The translations under genes were made by a program, and so were the position numbers. 64,000 nt of DNA from Lacunisphaera sp. GTDB lineage: Bacteria > Verrucomicrobiota > Verrucomicrobiia > Opitutales > Opitutaceae. Position 1 is the first letter of the stretch. The number at the start of each line of letters is the position of its first letter. The DNA lies in the NCBI GenBank assembly GCA_036499685.1, contig DASYDH010000059.1, forward strand, positions 23,057-87,056, given 5' to 3'. Below are positions 1-14,380 of the stretch, piece after piece. The notes beneath the pieces were generated by a model. That model was not told the DNA's origin and did no database searches. It saw only the letters and a list, made by a program, of their open reading frames with translations.

Positions 1-18
1 GTTGCATTGGGAAGATAA

Positions 19-6917: not shown

Positions 6918-8618
6918 ATGGTTCACATGCAACTTTCCCTTCCTTCCATCCCTTCGTCCACCCCCGTCGCATCCAAACCTGGTTGTGCAAAAAATTCATC
7001 GACGCCCACTGTACCCGCCGACTCGGCGGATGCTGCGGCCGACTCGTTCGATTCTCTTTTGCCCAAGAACCGTCCCGCTGGCAAACCGGCCAAGGCTGCT
7101 GACGACAAATCCGATTCCGACACTGAACAAAACGCGGCGGTTTTAACCGCAGGTTTCTGGATGCCGATGGTTGCACCCGTTGCGCCGACTCCTGATCCGG
7201 CCACTTCACTAGGCACGGCGTCGGCCAGTGCCGGATGTGCGACGGGTTCTACCGGCGCAGCTCTCGCTGACGGTTCCGCAACAGGCGCGGGTCTGTTCCC
7301 ATCGACGAATCCCCGGGCTTTTGGCACCGTGATTCAATCGAGAATTCAATCGATGACGTCACCGGCAGGTTCAGACCCGGAAACAGTTGTTTCCGCCGTG
7401 TCTGATCCAACCACTGCGGCCACCACGACACCGGCGGCAATGATGCCGGCGATGGCTGCGGCTGATGCTGCTGGTTCTCAACTGCTGGCGCAGGCGGTGG
7501 GAGTTCCAGTCGGTGTGCCAATGCAGATTCCGGGTACTGTGCCGATGCCGGCGAAGAGGTCTGGCGCCACCACCTCGGCAATTTCAACCGGTAAATCGAC
7601 GAGTACTGAAACGGGATCGTTGAGTAACTCCGAACGGGGGACTGCAGGAGTGTCTGACGTCACCACGGCGGTGGTTCAGGTCCCGGACCCAAAGCATTCT
7701 GATCCCGACGCTCAGTCGGCTGGATCGGCGGACGTTGCGTCCACGATTCCTTCGAAGGAGGAGACAGAATTAAGCGCAAGTTTCGGTTCTGAAGTGGCGA
7801 AAGCGGCGACCACACTTGTGGGCGGCGTTGCACGTAAGTTGACGAATTCTGTTCAGGAAAAAATTGCCGGTTTAACGGATGCGTCTCCTCAATCCGCAAA
7901 AAACCAATTCGCTGTTGCTGAAAAATACTTTTTAAACACTGCACAAAAGGGAGTTGCAACAGCAGGTCCGGCTCTTGGCACTGACGTTGCTAAAGTGAAT
8001 GCCACCATGGCCGCCGCGACCGCTCCCGCCCGACAGAAGTCCGATTCAACGAATGAATCGACGACCTCTTTTGTGTTTTCGGCTGAGCAGGCGCCCACGG
8101 CAACTCTCACGCTCGATGCCCCGGCACCGGTGGCGACGGTGCGTGAAACCATGGCTGCGGTCATTTCCGCGGTCGACGCCTTGGAACGGCGGGCGGACGT
8201 CCAGCAGAAATCCGTCGATCTTCAATTTAACGTGGGTAACGAAAAGCTCGGCCTTCGCGTCGAGCTGCGCGACGGCACGGTGCATACCACGTTTCAGACC
8301 GAATCCCCCGAGATGAATAGTGCGCTTAGCCGCGAATGGCATGAGGTGGTGCAACCGGCGCTTGCTCGTGAAATTCACCTCGCTGAACCAGTCTTTCATT
8401 CCCCTTCCACGTCCGGCAACGCGGTCCCCGCGGCCGGTTCGGATTCTGCCGCAACCGCGTTCGGCCACGGCGCGCAACAACAGCGGGAACAGCCCAAGGC
8501 GCCGCCTACTTTTGCTTCGGCTCTTAAAACCGAATTCTACGAACCCGCTTCACCCGAAGCTGCGCCGGCCGTCGCTCCGGTTTCCAACTCCTCGCAATTG
8601 CTCAACGCCTTAGCCTGA
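6918..8618 (+). CDS. fliK: Flagellar hook-length control protein FliK-like
   Basis: 566 aa; A/T/S/P-rich low-complexity N-region; C-terminal T3S4-like LQFNV..EKLGLRVELRDG.VHTTFQTESPEM; directly upstream of flgD. Start may be 6918 or 6927. Confidence 0.75.
   Translation: MVHMQLSLPSIPSSTPVASKPGCAKNSSTPTVPADSADAAADSFDSLLPKNRPAGKPAKAADDKSDSDTEQNAAVLTAGFWMPMVAPVAPTPDPATSLGTASASAGCATGSTGAALADGSATGAGLFPSTNPRAFGTVIQSRIQSMTSPAGSDPETVVSAVSDPTTAATTTPAAMMPAMAAADAAGSQLLAQAVGVPVGVPMQIPGTVPMPAKRSGATTSAISTGKSTSTETGSLSNSERGTAGVSDVTTAVVQVPDPKHSDPDAQSAGSADVASTIPSKEETELSASFGSEVAKAATTLVGGVARKLTNSVQEKIAGLTDASPQSAKNQFAVAEKYFLNTAQKGVATAGPALGTDVAKVNATMAAATAPARQKSDSTNESTTSFVFSAEQAPTATLTLDAPAPVATVRETMAAVISAVDALERRADVQQKSVDLQFNVGNEKLGLRVELRDGTVHTTFQTESPEMNSALSREWHEVVQPALAREIHLAEPVFHSPSTSGNAVPAAGSDSAATAFGHGAQQQREQPKAPPTFASALKTEFYEPASPEAAPAVAPVSNSSQLLNALA
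7975..7991 (+). promoter_or_regulatory. Putative sigma54 (-24/-12) promoter internal to fliK
   Basis: TTGGCAC-TGACG-TTGCT matches YTGGCAC-N5-TTGCW; in-frame GCCACC-ATG at 8007; A/T tract 7919-7937; imperfect dyad CAGGAA-AAAA-TTGCCG at 7854-7869. Confidence 0.7.
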
Positions 8619-8625
8619 TACCACC

Positions 8626-9102
8626 ATGACTGTTAATTCTGTAGCTGCCCCCATCGATCCGGCGATCTCCACGCCGGTTACCTCCACCGGTCCACAGGCC
8701 CTTGGTTCCGCGGATTTCATGAAGCTTCTTGCGGTCCAATTCCAGTCTCAAGACCCGATGCAGCCCATGGATGACACCGCATTTATTGCCCAGATGGCGC
8801 AATTCACCTCCCTCTCGCAAACGCAGACGATGACGGCGGAAATGGTGAAAATGGATTCCAGCCAGCAGCTCGCCTCCGCCAACAGTTTCCTCGGGAAGCA
8901 AGTGGTGGTCGACAACGGTCAGGGCGGTACCGATTCCGGCACGGTCAGCGGGGTCCAAGTCGATCCGACCAATGGGCCGCAACTCATCATCGGCAACAAT
9001 GCTTATTCAATGTCGTCCGTGCTGTACGTTCAGCCGGTCCCCGATTCCACCTCTACGTCCACCACCACGCCAGCAGCCGCGACCACAAGTAGCGGATCCT
9101 AA
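8626..9102 (+). CDS. flgD: Flagellar hook capping protein FlgD
   Basis: 158 aa; LG..DFMKLLAVQFQSQDPMQPMDDTAFIAQMAQFTSL. Confidence 0.95.
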   Translation: MTVNSVAAPIDPAISTPVTSTGPQALGSADFMKLLAVQFQSQDPMQPMDDTAFIAQMAQFTSLSQTQTMTAEMVKMDSSQQLASANSFLGKQVVVDNGQGGTDSGTVSGVQVDPTNGPQLIIGNNAYSMSSVLYVQPVPDSTSTSTTTPAAATTSSGS

Positions 9103-9122: not shown

Positions 9123-9998
9123 ATGTCACTCATCGGCACACTCGGCAGCGGCGTCAGCGCCCTCCAATCCTTCATGAAAGGGCTCGACGTCATCGGTAAC
9201 AATATCGCGAATGTTAACACCACTGGCTTCAAGAGCAGTTCGGCGCAATACGTCGACAGTTTTAGCAATGTCCTCCAAGGCTCCGCCCCCGGCGTTCCCC
9301 CCGCATCGAACACGCCGACCGTGGCGATCGGTACCGGGGTCCGATTGGGTTCGATTCACACGGATTACAGCCAGGGGTCGCTCGAAACGACCGGCTCCGG
9401 CACGGATCTCGGCATCTCTGGCGAAGGTTATTTCCATGTGCAAAATCCAGTCGACGGCACCGAGTATGCCACGCGCGACGGCAGCTTCCGTTGGGACGAC
9501 AAGGGTAATCTCGTCAACAGTCAGGGCTACAGCGTCATGGGTTTGACCGGCGCGGGTCTGGCCACGGTGGGTCCGATCAAACTCGGCACACCGCCAACCG
9601 GTACGCAGCTGCAGTCCGTGACGATCGACAAGAGCGGCAACGTCGTCGAATTTTATTCCGACGGCACATCGGCCACGACCAATCAGGTTCAGTTGCAAAA
9701 ATTCACCGACCAATCGGCGCTCGTGCCGGAAGGGAACAATCTTTACTCTGGACTTCTCGCGGCCGGGCCCATCGGAGCAGCCAGCGGCACGACTGCGTTC
9801 CAAGCGGGTGGCGTTAACGCCCCCGGCGCCAACGGTCTTGGTGACATCCAGTCCGGCACGCTTGAACTTTCCAACGTCGATCTCACCAGCCAGTTTGCCA
9901 ACCTCATCACCACGCAGCGCAGCTTCCAAGCTGGCGCCCGTCTGATCACGGTTTCCGATTCGATCCTCGACGACGTCGTCAACCTGAAGCGCTCGTAA
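9123..9998 (+). CDS. flgE: Flagellar hook protein FlgE (short form)
   Basis: 291 aa; GNNIANVNTTGFK, ATRDGSF, LELSNVDL..QFANLI..QRSFQA.AR.I..SD; follows flgD. Confidence 0.88.
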   Translation: MSLIGTLGSGVSALQSFMKGLDVIGNNIANVNTTGFKSSSAQYVDSFSNVLQGSAPGVPPASNTPTVAIGTGVRLGSIHTDYSQGSLETTGSGTDLGISGEGYFHVQNPVDGTEYATRDGSFRWDDKGNLVNSQGYSVMGLTGAGLATVGPIKLGTPPTGTQLQSVTIDKSGNVVEFYSDGTSATTNQVQLQKFTDQSALVPEGNNLYSGLLAAGPIGAASGTTAFQAGGVNAPGANGLGDIQSGTLELSNVDLTSQFANLITTQRSFQAGARLITVSDSILDDVVNLKRS

Positions 9999-10020: not shown

Positions 10021-10620
10021 ATGGCCGCCAAAGCCGACGCTCCAGCCACTGCCTCCAGCACCACGACGCCCGCCATACCGGTGGCCGCCGCGACGCCCGC
10101 CAAAAAAGGCGGGGCGTTGGTGCAGTGGATTCCGCTTATTGCGGCGATCGTGCTGGCGCCAGCCCTGAGTTGGGCCGTTTCCGAATACGTCCTGTTGCCA
10201 CGCATGGTGACGAAACTGGCCACCGTGAAGGTGGGCAGCGAAGCCCCCGACGAACACGTCGCTCCCGCGGTGGAAGCCAAAGAAGGGGTTAAGGAAAAAG
10301 GGAAGGAGGGCGCGGGAAATCCCACGACTTACGAGTTTCAAAACGTCGTCGTGAACCTGGCCGGAACGATGGGCACGCGTTATTTGAAGACGAGTTTCGT
10401 CGTCACGGGTGCCGACGCCAAAATCAAGGAAACCTTTGAGACGCAGAAAGCCAAGCTGACCGATATCACGTTGAACGTTCTCTCCTCGCTGTCGCTCGCC
10501 GATCTTGAAGAACCGGGCGCAAAAAACGTGCTCCGGGAAAAGCTGGTGCTGGCCTACAACCAGGCGCTGGGCAAAAAGGTGGCGGAGCAGGTTTATTTTT
10601 CCGACTTCGTGGTGCAGTAA
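10021..10620 (+). CDS. fliL: Flagellar basal-body-associated protein FliL
   Basis: 199 aa; one TM; VVNLA....RYLK; C-terminal VYFSDFVVQ. Confidence 0.92.
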   Translation: MAAKADAPATASSTTTPAIPVAAATPAKKGGALVQWIPLIAAIVLAPALSWAVSEYVLLPRMVTKLATVKVGSEAPDEHVAPAVEAKEGVKEKGKEGAGNPTTYEFQNVVVNLAGTMGTRYLKTSFVVTGADAKIKETFETQKAKLTDITLNVLSSLSLADLEEPGAKNVLREKLVLAYNQALGKKVAEQVYFSDFVVQ

Positions 10621-10634
10621 ACTGATCCGCGACC

Positions 10635-11693
10635 ATGGCCGACGAACCGAAAAAGCAGACGACCGACTTTCTCGATCAATCCGAGATCGACAAACTGTTG
10701 TCGCAGGAAACGGCGCAACAGGCCCCGAAGCAGCACTTGATCCGCGCCAACGGTGAGCGCACGGAAGCCGCCGCCGCCGTCAAGGTCGAAACATATGATT
10801 TTAGAAATCCGGTTTTCCTCTCGGAAATTGAACTGCGCCGGCTCCGCATTCTTCACGAGGATTTTATCCGCTACCTCAGCGCGCGCCTCTCGTTGTTCCT
10901 GCGTATGGAGCTGGGTTTGAAGATGGCGAAGCTGACCACGTTGACCTACGGCAAGTTTACCGAGGGACTGCCGAGTCCGACTCATCTTTGCCTGTTCAAG
11001 GTCGAGCCCCTGATGGGCGTTGGCATCCTCGATATCAATCCACGGCTCGCTCTCACCATCGCCGACCGCCTGCTGGGTGGACGCGGGCATTCGGTGAAAG
11101 CCGAACGTTATCTGACCGAAATCGAGGTCGCCCTGCTGGAGGACATCATCCAGATCATCCTTGAGGAATGGTGCGGCCAGTGGAAGACCGAGCAGGAATT
11201 GCACGGCTTGATCATCGGTCACGAATCCAACGGCCGGTTTTTGCAAACTTCACCGAAGGACGCCATCGTTTTGGCGCTTACCCTGGAAGTTAATTTCGGC
11301 GATTGCTCCGAGCAGATCCAGATCGGGTTGCCCTACTATACGATCGAGCCGCTGGTGAAAAAAATGCAGGCCCGCCGTCAGAAGGATTCCACGGTGGCCC
11401 AGGTGGAAAAACACCCGGCCTGGCAGAAATCCTACGATGGCATCACTGTGCCGGTCCGTGCGGAATGGCAGGCATTTGAACTGAGCATCCGTGAAATTTC
11501 CAATCTCCGCGTCGGTGACGTCCTGGAAATGCCGGCAAATCTACTGCAGGAAACTTCCGTGCTGCTCAATGGCACGCCCAAATTTAACGGCACGGTCGGT
11601 CTCGATACCGACCGGGTCGCGGTAAAGCTTACGCGCAAAATTCCCCAAGAGGAAAGCAACCCAATCAAATCAGATGGACGAAAAAACCCTTGA
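10635..11693 (+). CDS. fliM: Flagellar motor switch protein FliM
   Basis: 352 aa; N-terminal CheY-binding LDQSEIDKLL; YDFRNP; RYLTEIE; C-terminal SpoA domain. Confidence 0.95.
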   Translation: MADEPKKQTTDFLDQSEIDKLLSQETAQQAPKQHLIRANGERTEAAAAVKVETYDFRNPVFLSEIELRRLRILHEDFIRYLSARLSLFLRMELGLKMAKLTTLTYGKFTEGLPSPTHLCLFKVEPLMGVGILDINPRLALTIADRLLGGRGHSVKAERYLTEIEVALLEDIIQIILEEWCGQWKTEQELHGLIIGHESNGRFLQTSPKDAIVLALTLEVNFGDCSEQIQIGLPYYTIEPLVKKMQARRQKDSTVAQVEKHPAWQKSYDGITVPVRAEWQAFELSIREISNLRVGDVLEMPANLLQETSVLLNGTPKFNGTVGLDTDRVAVKLTRKIPQEESNPIKSDGRKNP

Positions 11694-11931
11694 TATCGTA
11701 CTCGACGTCAGAGTGAAGGTCACGGTGCAACTCGGCTCGTGCCAGTTGCCCATGCGCGAAGTACTCGAGTTGTCGCCGGGCTCCGTCCTGCAGCTGAACC
11801 AGCATGCCAGCGATCCGGTTGGTCTCTATGTGAACGAGAAACTCGTCGCGTATGGTGAAGTCGTGGTGGTGGAAGATAATTTCGGCATTAAAATCACCGA
11901 ACTCGTGGGCAGCGTGAAACTGCCGGCCTGA
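11674..11931 (+). CDS. fliN: Flagellar motor switch protein FliN
   Basis: 85 aa SpoA domain; LDIVLDV.V.V.V.LG...L...EVL.L..GS; A.GEVVVV..NFGIKITE. Confidence 0.95.
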   Translation: MDEKTLDIVLDVRVKVTVQLGSCQLPMREVLELSPGSVLQLNQHASDPVGLYVNEKLVAYGEVVVVEDNFGIKITELVGSVKLPA

Positions 11932-11964
11932 GTTTGTTCGGAGTTTCCACTTGATTTTACCCGC

Positions 11965-12396
11965 ATGACCCGTTCCTCACTTTTCACCGCGCTCAGGCTT
12001 TGGCTGCTGGCGTGGGCGCTCGGCAGTCTGGCAGTGCCGGCTTTTGCGGCTCCTGCCGATGAGAAGGCGAAGGATGCCACCGTCATCTATCCGCACGGTC
12101 CGGCCAATAAAGCGGAGACATCCACCACACAGAGTTCGATGTATGGCAGCGGGGTGCTGGTCGTGGCGCTACTTCTCGCTGGTGCCGGTGGCTGGCTTTT
12201 CTGGCGCGGCCGTGCGGTTCCAACCGGAACCATGAGCGCGCGCAAACTCGCCATTGCCGAGACGAAATCGTTGGGCAACCGCCAGTATCTGGTGGTCGCG
12301 GCCTACGAGGATAAAAAATTTCTGCTCAGCGTTTGCCCGGGAAAGATTGAATTGCTCACTCCGCTGGATGGCCCGCCGCCGTTCAAACTACCATGA
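11965..12396 (+). CDS. fliO: Flagellar export protein FliO/FliZ
   Basis: 143 aa; signal/TM segments; L.I.ET..LG.RQ.L.V..Y..K.FLL.V..G.I.LL. Confidence 0.88.
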   Translation: MTRSSLFTALRLWLLAWALGSLAVPAFAAPADEKAKDATVIYPHGPANKAETSTTQSSMYGSGVLVVALLLAGAGGWLFWRGRAVPTGTMSARKLAIAETKSLGNRQYLVVAAYEDKKFLLSVCPGKIELLTPLDGPPPFKLP

Positions 12397-13244
12397 AGGG
12401 CATTCGTATTATTCTTGGCGCTCTTTTTGCGGTTCTGGCTTTCGGACTTTTTGCCCCGACTGGATTGGCCCAGGTTAATAATCCGCCATCGGCAACTATC
12501 ACGCCCGGCGGCATGCCCGCCGCTCCGGCTCCTGCTCCCGCTTCGGGTACGGCGGCTTCCACGGCCGGCCAGCCATTGCACCTGACGATCGGCCTCGAAG
12601 GCAAACAAGGCACGGGGGACGTCAGCGTCGCGGTGCAGATCGTCATCCTCATGACGCTGCTGACCCTCGCGCCGTCGATTGTCCTGCTGATGACGAGTTT
12701 CACCCGCATCGTGATCGTACTCGGTTTTGTGCGCACGGCGCTCGGCGTACCGAGTGCACCTTCGAACCAAATTATCGTGGGCCTTTCACTTTTCCTGACA
12801 TTTTTTCTGATGGGCCCGGTATTCGACCGGATGAATGCCGAAGCTATCCAGCCTTATCTCGGGGGAAAAATGACTTCCGTCGAAGCGATGGACAAAGCAT
12901 CGGTGCCACTGAAGGAATTCATGCTAAAGCAAACCCGGACCCGCGACCTGGAATATTTCCTTGAACTCGGCGGCTTCGGCCCGACGGCGGTGAAGGATCT
13001 TTCCATGCGGGTGGTGGTACCGGCTTTCATTGTCAGCGAATTGCAGACTTCGTTTCAAATGGGCTTTCTGCTTTTCCTGCCGTTCCTGGTGATCGATTTT
13101 CTCGTATCATCGGTGTTGATGGCACTTGGCATGATGATGATGCCGCCCGTGGCGGTCGCGCTACCGTTCAAGTTGTTGCTTTTTGTCCTCGTCGATGGCT
13201 GGCACCTGGTGGTGCGGTCGCTGGTGCAAAGCTTTACCGCCTGA
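12393..13244 (+). CDS. fliP: Flagellar export gate protein FliP
   Basis: 283 aa; LTLAPSI.L.MTSFTRI.IVL..R.ALG; PAF..SEL..F..GF; LPFKLLLFVLVDGW. Confidence 0.97.
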   Translation: MKGIRIILGALFAVLAFGLFAPTGLAQVNNPPSATITPGGMPAAPAPAPASGTAASTAGQPLHLTIGLEGKQGTGDVSVAVQIVILMTLLTLAPSIVLLMTSFTRIVIVLGFVRTALGVPSAPSNQIIVGLSLFLTFFLMGPVFDRMNAEAIQPYLGGKMTSVEAMDKASVPLKEFMLKQTRTRDLEYFLELGGFGPTAVKDLSMRVVVPAFIVSELQTSFQMGFLLFLPFLVIDFLVSSVLMALGMMMMPPVAVALPFKLLLFVLVDGWHLVVRSLVQSFTA

Positions 13245-13257
13245 TAAATTTCCCCTC

Positions 13258-13527
13258 ATGAATCCGGAAGTCGCAGTTGATATTTTCAAAAGCACGGTGA
13301 TGTTTTCGCTCTATGTGGTCGCGCCATTTCTTGGGATCACGCTGGTCGTGGGTCTCATCGCCAGCCTCATCCAGTCGGTGACGAGTTTGCAGGAGCCAAC
13401 GCTGAGTTTTGCGCCGAAGTTGCTCGCGCTGGCCGGCGCGATGTTGCTTTTGACGCCGTGGCTGCTGCGGACGCTTTCGGAGTTTACGATTTCATTTATC
13501 ACCCGCATGGGAACGATGGCGCACTAG
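13258..13527 (+). CDS. fliQ: Flagellar export gate protein FliQ
   Basis: 89 aa from ATG 13258; Q..T.LQE.TLSF.PK. Confidence 0.95.
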   Translation: MNPEVAVDIFKSTVMFSLYVVAPFLGITLVVGLIASLIQSVTSLQEPTLSFAPKLLALAGAMLLLTPWLLRTLSEFTISFITRMGTMAH

Positions 13528-13627
13528 GGAGTCCGGTACAGATGAGCTTCCTCATCGCGTTTGAATTTTCACCGCTGGCGAATTGGAGGCCGGTTCGAAT
13601 CGATCGTGGTCGCACGCTTTATTTTCC

Positions 13628-14380
13628 ATGAGCCTCGACTACCTGCTCACTTGGATGATGGTCCTGTTGAGATCCATTGGCATCGTCCTGTTGTTGCCGA
13701 CGCTGGCCGGACGCCCGCTGCCGGTGACGGTGCGGATGGGATTGAGCCTGTGCCTTGCGACGCTGGTGGCGGGCATTGTGCCGCCGGCAAATTTGCCTTT
13801 GGGATCGTGGGAACTCGTTTACGCTGCCGCTGGGGAAGTCGTCATGGGGTTGGCGATGGGATTTATTGGACGGATGACTTTTACCGCCGTGGAAATGACG
13901 GGGCGTATCATCACCTCGGAAATCGGTTTCGTTGCGTCTCCGGGACTCGGTGTACCCGAACCGGCTAACGAACCGCTGGCCGCATTCCTTGCGGTCTTTA
14001 CCGGGGTGATTTTTTTCGCTTTGGGCGGACATCTTACGGCGATCACGGCCTTTGCCAAAAGCTTTTCGCTCGCGGCACCGGGGCATCCGCTTTTTCAGTC
14101 GGCGGCCCCGGAGTTCTTTATCGCGGCGACCTCCCACGTTTTGGAATTGGGGCTGCGCATGGCGGCGCCGTTTATCGCCTTGAATTTCCTCGTGACACTG
14201 GCGTTTTCAGTTCTCGGGCGTGCGGTGCCGAAGATGAACGTGTTTGTGCTGAGCTTTTCGGTGCGCTTGTTCGCCGGACTGATCTTGCTCGCGGGATCGG
14301 GTGCGCTTATGGGGCGGTATCTTTACGTCGAGTTCGGTAATATGCCGCTCGACATGCTTCGGCTGCTGGCCGGTCCGTGA
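13628..14380 (+). CDS. fliR: Flagellar export gate protein FliR
   Basis: 250 aa hydrophobic, from ATG 13628; GGHL, APFI..L......LGRAVP.MNVF.L. Confidence 0.95.
   Translation: MSLDYLLTWMMVLLRSIGIVLLLPTLAGRPLPVTVRMGLSLCLATLVAGIVPPANLPLGSWELVYAAAGEVVMGLAMGFIGRMTFTAVEMTGRIITSEIGFVASPGLGVPEPANEPLAAFLAVFTGVIFFALGGHLTAITAFAKSFSLAAPGHPLFQSAAPEFFIAATSHVLELGLRMAAPFIALNFLVTLAFSVLGRAVPKMNVFVLSFSVRLFAGLILLAGSGALMGRYLYVEFGNMPLDMLRLLAGP

Follow-up and report, generated by a model that had tools for sequence, protein, structure and literature searches.

Can a stretch of coding sequence within a flagellar gene serve at the same time as a complete promoter, and if it does, what would the resulting transcript encode? 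The question is raised by a 64,000-nucleotide stretch of DNA from Lacunisphaera sp. (Verrucomicrobiota, Opitutales, Opitutaceae; assembly GCA_036499685.1, contig DASYDH010000059.1, positions 23,057 to 87,056 of the forward strand), hereafter the window, whose flagellar gene cluster includes the hook-length control gene fliK. An initial annotation had pointed to a sigma-54 promoter-like sequence inside fliK, TTGGCACTGACGTTGCT (7975-7991), together with an in-frame ATG at 8007, an upstream dyad and an A/T tract (7919-7937), and all of these sequence statements were confirmed. On the basis of comparisons across the order Opitutales, the view that about 150 bp of fliK coding DNA is dual-coded, specifying both a protein and an enhancer-dependent promoter, is strongly supported, and fliK very probably contains a functional internal sigma-54 promoter.

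Results

The core motif and its conservation

The core of the motif, TGGCAC-N5-TTGCT (TGGCAC-TGACG-TTGCT), lies on the + strand at 7976-7991, with the -24 GG at 7977-7978 and the -12 GC at 7989-7990, and it matches the extended consensus TGGCAC-N5-TTGCW perfectly and with the exact -24/-12 spacing. Within the reading frame it appears as xxT GGC ACT GAC GTT GCT, which encodes L-G-T-D-V-A. Transcription from sigma-54 promoters starts about 12 nt past the -12 GC, and this geometry predicts a start at 8001-8003 on the + strand. RpoN is encoded in the genome by one Sigma54_DBD gene, alongside about ten full-scoring Sigma54_activat genes. Other strict or near-strict matches to the motif in the genome are found mostly just 5' of gene starts, and the fliK site is among the very few that are intragenic. 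Another candidate in the same gene, TGGCATGAGGTGGTGCA (8337-8353; peptide W-H-E-V-V-Q), was rejected as a sigma-54 site; its spacing of 11 nt is one base too long, and its retention in close relatives is protein-level conservation and a false lead.

Loci containing fliK and flgD were gathered from 21 relatives and then from 80 species-level Opitutales genomes, including the genera Opitutus, Oleiharenicola, Lacunisphaera, Didemnitutus, and Horticoccus and many metagenome bins; the identity of their FlgD proteins to that of the window goes down to 36-45%. The motif is present at the homologous fliK position in 19 of the 22 loci of the first set, and almost all of the 22 loci missed by a strict search carry TGGCAY-N5-(C/G)TGCT at the same place. 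The core was further compared in 90 unique fliK genes that had been anchored by protein alignment, independently of the motif. The bases T-GG(C/T)A-N6-TGC are kept in 86 of these 90 genes. Nine different amino acids are specified by the codon that precedes Gly, yet its third base is T in 89 genes, and the Gly codon itself is GGC in 87. At the 'Val' codon, which is GTT in 62 genes, the third-position T (the T of TGC) is still retained where Val is replaced by Ala, Ile, Ser, Gly, or Leu. The Ala codon is GCT in 78 genes, GCA in 7, GCG in 2, and GCC in none, against a background in the same genes in which GCC accounts for 40% of Ala codons and GCT for only 15%. Control columns, i.e., conserved Gly, Val, Ala, Thr, and Pro residues elsewhere in fliK and flgD, use two to four synonymous codons each. 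We judge the promoter to be real because the bases that are not dictated by the protein are fixed while the control columns vary. The proposal that the GTDVA-type peptide is simply the promoter read in frame is supported by the same synonymous-site conservation, and the promoter unit has been kept across Opitutales.

The promoter does not coincide with a gene boundary in the relatives. All 65 complete orthologs have at least 223 open codons upstream of the motif, in a frame that continues through the promoter, which excludes that fliK is split, or that the promoter is intergenic, in any of them. The N-terminal part of these orthologs ranges from 196 to 685 codons, whereas the part from the motif to the stop codon ranges only from 194 to 243. 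The promoter would therefore sit at the junction between a variable N-terminal ruler and a constant C-terminal switch module.

The gene itself (6918-8618, + strand; 566 codons as the longest open reading frame, ORF) is identified as fliK on the basis of its fold and synteny, as sequence profiles gave weak matches or none. Its match to Flg_hook (PF02120) is weak (E = 0.061, 13.6 bits versus a cut-off of 29.8), as are those of 10 out of 20 relatives (best E = 0.0022), and the ORF has no NCBIfam match and no PDB match in sequence (profile) searches. An AlphaFold model of the 203-residue C-terminal product discussed below has a confident core at residues 45-131 (predicted local distance difference test score, pLDDT, 74-91), corresponding to 8139-8399 on the + strand, with an alpha-beta-beta-beta-alpha-beta order. 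Its top PDB matches in Foldseek are the PscP switch domain (5cuk; probability 1.00, E = 2e-3) and FliK-C (2rrl; probability 0.96, E = 1.6e-2), with E-values that are modest. This T3S4-like substrate-specificity switch domain lies wholly within the 203-residue product, as had been proposed. The longest ORF begins with MVHMQLSL, and many orthologs share the N-terminal sequence MQLS(L/V); the real start is probably the ATG at 6927, three codons downstream, in which case the Met364 discussed below would become Met361.

The upstream dyad and the flagellar regulon

A putative activator-site dyad, GGAAAAAATTGCC(GG), is located at 7856-7870 (GGAAAAAATTGCC itself at 7856-7868; consensus GG(C/A)AA-N3-TTGCC). 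From its end to the -24 element there are 107 bp, and from its centre to the predicted start about 140 bp; sigma-54 promoters call for an activator site some 80-150 bp upstream, frequently with a bend. Between the dyad and the core lie the A/T-rich block GAAAAATACTTTTTAAACA (7919-7937), likely an intrinsic bend or an IHF-type site, and a small conserved element, AG-N3-GTT (7948-7955), about 50 nt before the predicted start; all three elements are on the + strand. When 88 sequences were aligned at the motif and profiled position by position, conservation fell into separate islands, namely the dyad (-120 to -106), the A/T block (-56 to -40), AG-N3-GTT, the core, and the ATG, with almost none between them. 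The dyad and the A/T block are thus conserved as DNA elements. Residues encoded by the dyad vary (EKIA, ENFA, AIFA, ANFA) while the DNA is kept, with an Ala codon that is GCC in 19 out of 19 cases, and the dyad is a perfect palindrome in several lineages. Codon alignment likewise showed that the A/T block is kept as DNA though the encoded amino acids change. The dyad may resemble the Caulobacter ftr element.

Genome-wide, there are 53 matches to the dyad, only four of which end 107-109 bp upstream of TGGCAY-N5-TTGCW. All four of these composites are flagellar and belong to flgB, fliK, flhB(-flhA), and flhF, the latter two on another contig (C25). The flgF-flgG genes have a fifth flagellar sigma-54 promoter, with a degenerate copy of the dyad placed closer in. 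When non-flagellar sigma-54 promoters were aligned, the flagellar dyad was absent and other upstream repeats were found instead. In relatives, these composites recur at flgB, within fliK, and ahead of flhB, all of them on one strand, and in almost every locus where fliK has the strict dyad pattern, 107 bp separate the dyad from the core. The fliK dyad mostly has a GGAAA half-site, as opposed to GGCAA at flgB and flhB. The common dyad at 107-109 bp before the flgB, flhB, and flhF promoters places the fliK promoter in one flagellar regulon with them and implies the same activator. By this architecture, the fliK site is a full member of the flagellar sigma-54 regulon and its sole member embedded in coding sequence, and the dyad is presumed to be the binding site of the flagellar sigma-54 activator.

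As for the non-flagellar promoters, GGTTGC-N2-GCAACC palindromes flank an activator gene at sigma-54 promoters on contig C28 (1700-3700), and TTCCCA-N-TTTCGGGA precedes two others (C64:41450-41630 and C37:132650-132830). These repeats look like the activator sites of separate regulons. An NtrC-like protein encoded at C50:22840-24096 has a degenerate AAA+ domain (Walker A GELGSGHE, 80 bits to Sigma54_activat) and may be a non-canonical or inactive activator.

The in-frame ATG and a putative short FliK

The ATG at 8007-8009 is in frame with the ORF at 6918-8618, of which it is codon 364, and is located 17 nt past the C of the -12 element (C+17). The ORF that it opens (8007-8618, + strand) would encode a 203-residue C-terminal isoform of FliK. 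An ATG is present at C+17 in 84 of the 90 orthologs while the flanking residues vary; locus L057 has GTG there, and the start is shifted by a codon or so in L020, L023, and L086 (ATG) and in L084 (GTG). Within about 180 nt, every other in-frame codon position is ATG in fewer than 5 of the 88 profiled sequences. The true starts of the regulon in this genome lie at C+14 (flgB), C+15 (flgF), and C+17 (flhB), and the last of these distances recurs in many relatives, where the FlhB alignment begins at residue 1.

Shine-Dalgarno sequences are not enriched before ORF starts in this genome (8.1% versus 9.5% background), and translation initiation in this organism appears to be independent of them. ORF starts show an excess of C at -1 and -2, and both Met364 and flgD have the context CCACC-ATG, so the earlier description of GCCACC-ATG as typical of the genome is roughly right, within the precision of crudely called ORF starts. 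The ATG at 8007 is probably used, because initiation appears to be independent of Shine-Dalgarno sequences and the regulon genes start 14-17 nt past the -12 C.

RNA folding points in the same direction. In 40-nt windows, the minimum free energy (MFE) averages -3 to -5 kcal/mol at or just after the ATG, compared with about -12 kcal/mol elsewhere in 88 orthologs, and in the window an unstructured, G-poor stretch (8007-8050, + strand) marks the start of the short ORF. The dip occurs without a matching drop in G+C content; the fraction of G is 0.20 as against about 0.34. At the flgD start there is an MFE dip of equal depth that is symmetric, whereas the dip at Met364 begins abruptly at the ATG, as a transcript with its 5' end a few bases upstream would require. 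The conserved ATG and these hallmarks of a start make the short isoform proposed in the initial annotation plausible, if unproven, and on balance we lean towards translation from Met364. No Rfam family matches the fliK region.

The final Ala codon of fliK (LNALA-stop, 8613-8615), located 11 nt before the flgD ATG, is GCC in 19 of 20 relatives, an unusual uniformity at a synonymous position, and it may belong to the initiation region of flgD.

The flagellar cluster and its other promoters

The gene order of the cluster is flgB-flgC-fliE-fliF-fliG-fliH-fliI-fliJ-(FlbB/YlxF-like)-ORF566-flgD-flgE-fliL-fliM-fliN-fliO-fliP-fliQ-fliR, where ORF566 is fliK. The first full gene past the internal promoter is flgD (hook cap; 8626-9102), about 624 nt from the predicted start, followed by flgE (hook protein; 9123-9998) and the remaining co-directional genes from fliL to fliR (10021-14380), all on the + strand. 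No convincing terminator was found in the cluster before 14380, and predicted terminators and sigma-70 promoters were not above chance. Comparative evidence strongly supports the proposal that a transcript from the fliK promoter would carry the 3' part of fliK, flgD, flgE, fliL, and onward.

The start of the window bisects the flgB promoter: GTTGCA at 1-6 (+ strand) is the last six bases of the sigma-54 promoter TGGCATGCGCGTTGCA (contig C59, 23047-23062). Its dyad, GGCAAAAATTGCC, lies to the left of the window at C59:22926, is perfect, and ends 108 bp upstream of TGGCATGCGCGTTGCA. The flgB ATG is at window position 19, 14 nt past the -12 C, and the leader of the flgB mRNA should be about 2 nt long.

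On contig C25 (16338-26000), flhB-flhA, flhF, and flgF-flgG are each located behind their own sigma-54 promoter. In 37 relatives flhB is directly 3' of fliR, whereas in the window a convergent radical-SAM (lipoyl-synthase-like) gene comes next after fliR (ending at 14380); the cluster has therefore been split or rearranged in this organism. The possibility of a second promoter embedded in coding sequence, in the fliR of the relatives, was excluded, as the flhB promoter is intergenic in 37 out of 37 loci. Between fliJ and fliK, the gene at 6244-6864 matches FlbB weakly (NCBIfam NF047368, E = 1.8e-14, below the cut-off) and also MgtE_N. NF047368 describes the spirochaete periplasmic-flagellum collar protein FlbB (NCBIfam), and the gene is probably of the YlxF/FlbB type common in fla-type operons.

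Discussion

Taken as a whole, the reading that we consider likely is that an internal sigma-54 promoter in fliK gives rise to a near-leaderless transcript running from fliK's C-terminal portion through flgD and flgE to fliR. An NtrC-family activator, presumably the same as for flgB, flhB, and flhF, would fire the promoter via the dyad, with the A/T-rich region bending the DNA between the dyad and the -24/-12 core. RpoN-dependent transcription would start near 8002 and proceed through the 3' part of fliK, flgD, flgE, and fliL to fliR, and through this internal start the hook genes and the distal genes of the 14-kb cluster would have their expression re-initiated and boosted. The ATG at 8007 would be the first start codon of the mRNA, behind a 5-nt leader, and the first cistron would be the FliK-C module, whose product would be the 203-residue C-terminal (T3S4) isoform, from which the export and ruler region is missing.

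Several points weigh against this reading. The bare motif is not above chance in the window (2 matches with at most one mismatch, versus 2.4 expected) or in the genome of 5.37 Mb and 57.7% G+C (8 strict matches versus about 5 expected from base composition), and we rejected motif statistics as evidence for the promoter. The relatives are mostly metagenome bins, and two loci from other families of the order (L021 and L022), the only ones among the first 22 without the motif, have neither the peptide nor the Met. No enhancer-binding protein gene was found in the 20-kb flagellar loci of 80 relatives. With regard to translation, a 5-nt leader is poorly translated in model bacteria, and the Shine-Dalgarno and context statistics rely on gene starts that were called crudely, as longest ORFs. 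Moreover, as Met has only one codon, the synonymous-site logic cannot separate its conservation from protein constraint. That the fliK motif stands above chance follows instead from its synonymous-site conservation in relatives and from the upstream dyad shared at a fixed spacing.

The best surviving alternative, which we consider rather unlikely, is that the promoter is real and Met364 is not a start. The transcript would then carry an untranslated leader of about 620 nt before flgD, and the Met would be conserved as part of FliK or of the initial transcribed sequence. Known intragenic sigma-54 promoters do give 5' untranslated regions of 360-760 nt (PMC4591121), and the conservation of the Met can be assigned to neither DNA nor protein. 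However, against an untranslated leader stand an ATG fixed at C+17 in 84 of 90 genes amid varying residues, with the shifted starts in L020, L023, and L086 and the GTG in L057, a geometry identical to that of true flhB starts, and an unstructured, G-poor stretch beginning exactly at the ATG. Initiation without a Shine-Dalgarno sequence would be nothing unusual in this organism, and the two loci without the motif are also without the Met.

A second alternative, which comes from the initial annotation and which we regard as improbable, is that the fliK promoter constitutes a distinct later class controlled apart from flgB, so that the hook genes are timed separately and two FliK lengths set two hook lengths. 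Sigma-54 hierarchies with separate hook-gene classes do exist in Caulobacter, Vibrio, and epsilonproteobacteria (PMC3930126), and the weaker GGAAA half-site in fliK could raise the activation threshold. However, the dyad is of the same type and at the same spacing as those of flgB, flhB, and flhF, implying one activator, and the notion of a separately timed class is thereby reduced to, at most, a shift in threshold. The idea of two hook lengths is not supported either, as the short product lacks the N-terminal export signal and ruler and cannot measure a shorter hook (PMC6972891).

It is very unlikely that the site is a non-productive one, at which a closed complex of the sigma-54 holoenzyme acts as a roadblock or attenuator for transcription from the flgB promoter. 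The holoenzyme does bind DNA while inactive, and in E. coli the majority of its sites lie within genes and have unknown functions (PMC4591121), but a roadblock needs neither a full dyad at the spacing of the intergenic promoters nor a co-conserved A/T block, nor an ATG at C+17. Hardly credible is the last alternative, in which a conserved FliK peptide, V-G-T/I-x-V-A-K, merely happens to spell the sigma-54 consensus without any function of the DNA; although the amino acids G, V, and A are indeed conserved and the bare motif is within the chance expectation genome-wide, this is already contradicted by the synonymous-site data, in which third positions are fixed on minority codons, the T is kept in the preceding codon whatever the amino acid and when Val changes to A, I, S, G, or L, and control columns vary, as well as by a dyad common to the intergenic flagellar promoters.

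If the preferred reading of an internal promoter followed by translation from Met364 is correct, what might the short isoform do? By analogy, it would modulate or time the switch from the cytoplasm, or else be no more than a by-product of continued translation across the leader. The N-terminal domain of Salmonella FliK holds both export signal and ruler, and FliK without residues 2-99 is not secreted and still switches export considerably (PMC6972891). In Caulobacter, compared with full-length FliK, overexpressed FliK-C causes a greater reduction in flagellin and motility, an effect that requires its last five residues (PMC8545394). The proposed short isoform may be the natural counterpart of these export-deficient FliK and FliK-C constructs (PMC6972891, PMC8545394). 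We tentatively suggest, as a possibility rather than an expectation, that flagella of Opitutales rely on two FliK products, a secreted full-length ruler and a non-secreted C-terminal T3S4 isoform that is expressed with the hook subunits from a sigma-54 promoter of its own and acts on FlhB from the cytoplasm and tunes or times the export switch.

Intragenic sigma-54 promoters have precedents. Bonocora et al. (2015) described conserved examples in E. coli and Salmonella, within nagB (for nagE), yqeC (for yqeB), and rlmD (for relA) (PMC4591121). As in fliK, these are in sense orientation within the upstream gene and at a comparable distance from the next gene (360-760 nt, versus about 624 nt for fliK), and their informative motif positions are conserved more than the uninformative ones; they drive the downstream gene (PMC4591121). 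In contrast to fliK, they give long untranslated leaders and are related to NtrC and nitrogen (PMC4591121), whereas in fliK the whole enhancer-to-core unit of about 150 bp is within the coding sequence, belongs to a flagellar regulon, and is followed by an in-frame start codon about 5 nt past the predicted start. Other precedents are the FleQ/sigma-54 promoters of Pseudomonas putida, which act as internal boosters inside long flagellar operons and of which those before parC and flhF lie in the coding sequence of the preceding gene (bioRxiv 10.1101/2021.08.29.457346); however, they are in different genes, none being in fliK, and no in-frame isoform was proposed. The hook-gene promoters of Caulobacter (FlbD-ftr-IHF), Campylobacter and Helicobacter (FlgSR), and Vibrio (FlrC) likewise combine sigma-54, an enhancer-binding protein, and a bend, as proposed here for fliK, flgD, and flgE, but they are intergenic and not internal to fliK (PMC3930126).

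With respect to the isoform, our literature search found no report of a C-terminal in-frame isoform of FliK/SctP, and in Pseudomonas a separate gene, fliK2, encodes only a FliK C-terminal-like domain. Among secretion and chemotaxis proteins, SctQ-C and CheA-S are isoforms that begin at an internal start in frame. Dual isoforms with an in-frame internal start are also known for Fha of the Vibrio type VI secretion system (PMC13389060). In all three, as proposed for fliK, a C-terminal domain is made separately from the reading frame of the full-length protein. They differ in that they rely on internal translation initiation on one mRNA, whereas in fliK a dedicated promoter would supply a short mRNA.

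The fliK locus offers an unusually clean case of dual coding, in which an activator site, a bend, a -24/-12 core, and a start codon would share about 150 bp of coding sequence and the choice of codons directly reveals each layer. For annotators, it indicates that synonymous-site conservation within genes can reveal promoters that are missed by motif statistics alone. The same locus illustrates a way of re-priming a 14-kb flagellar operon immediately ahead of its high-copy hook genes. Should the short product indeed be made, these bacteria would provide a natural system for a long-standing question of flagellar assembly, namely to what extent the hook-to-filament switch relies on the secreted ruler and to what extent on a FliK C-terminal domain that works within the cell.

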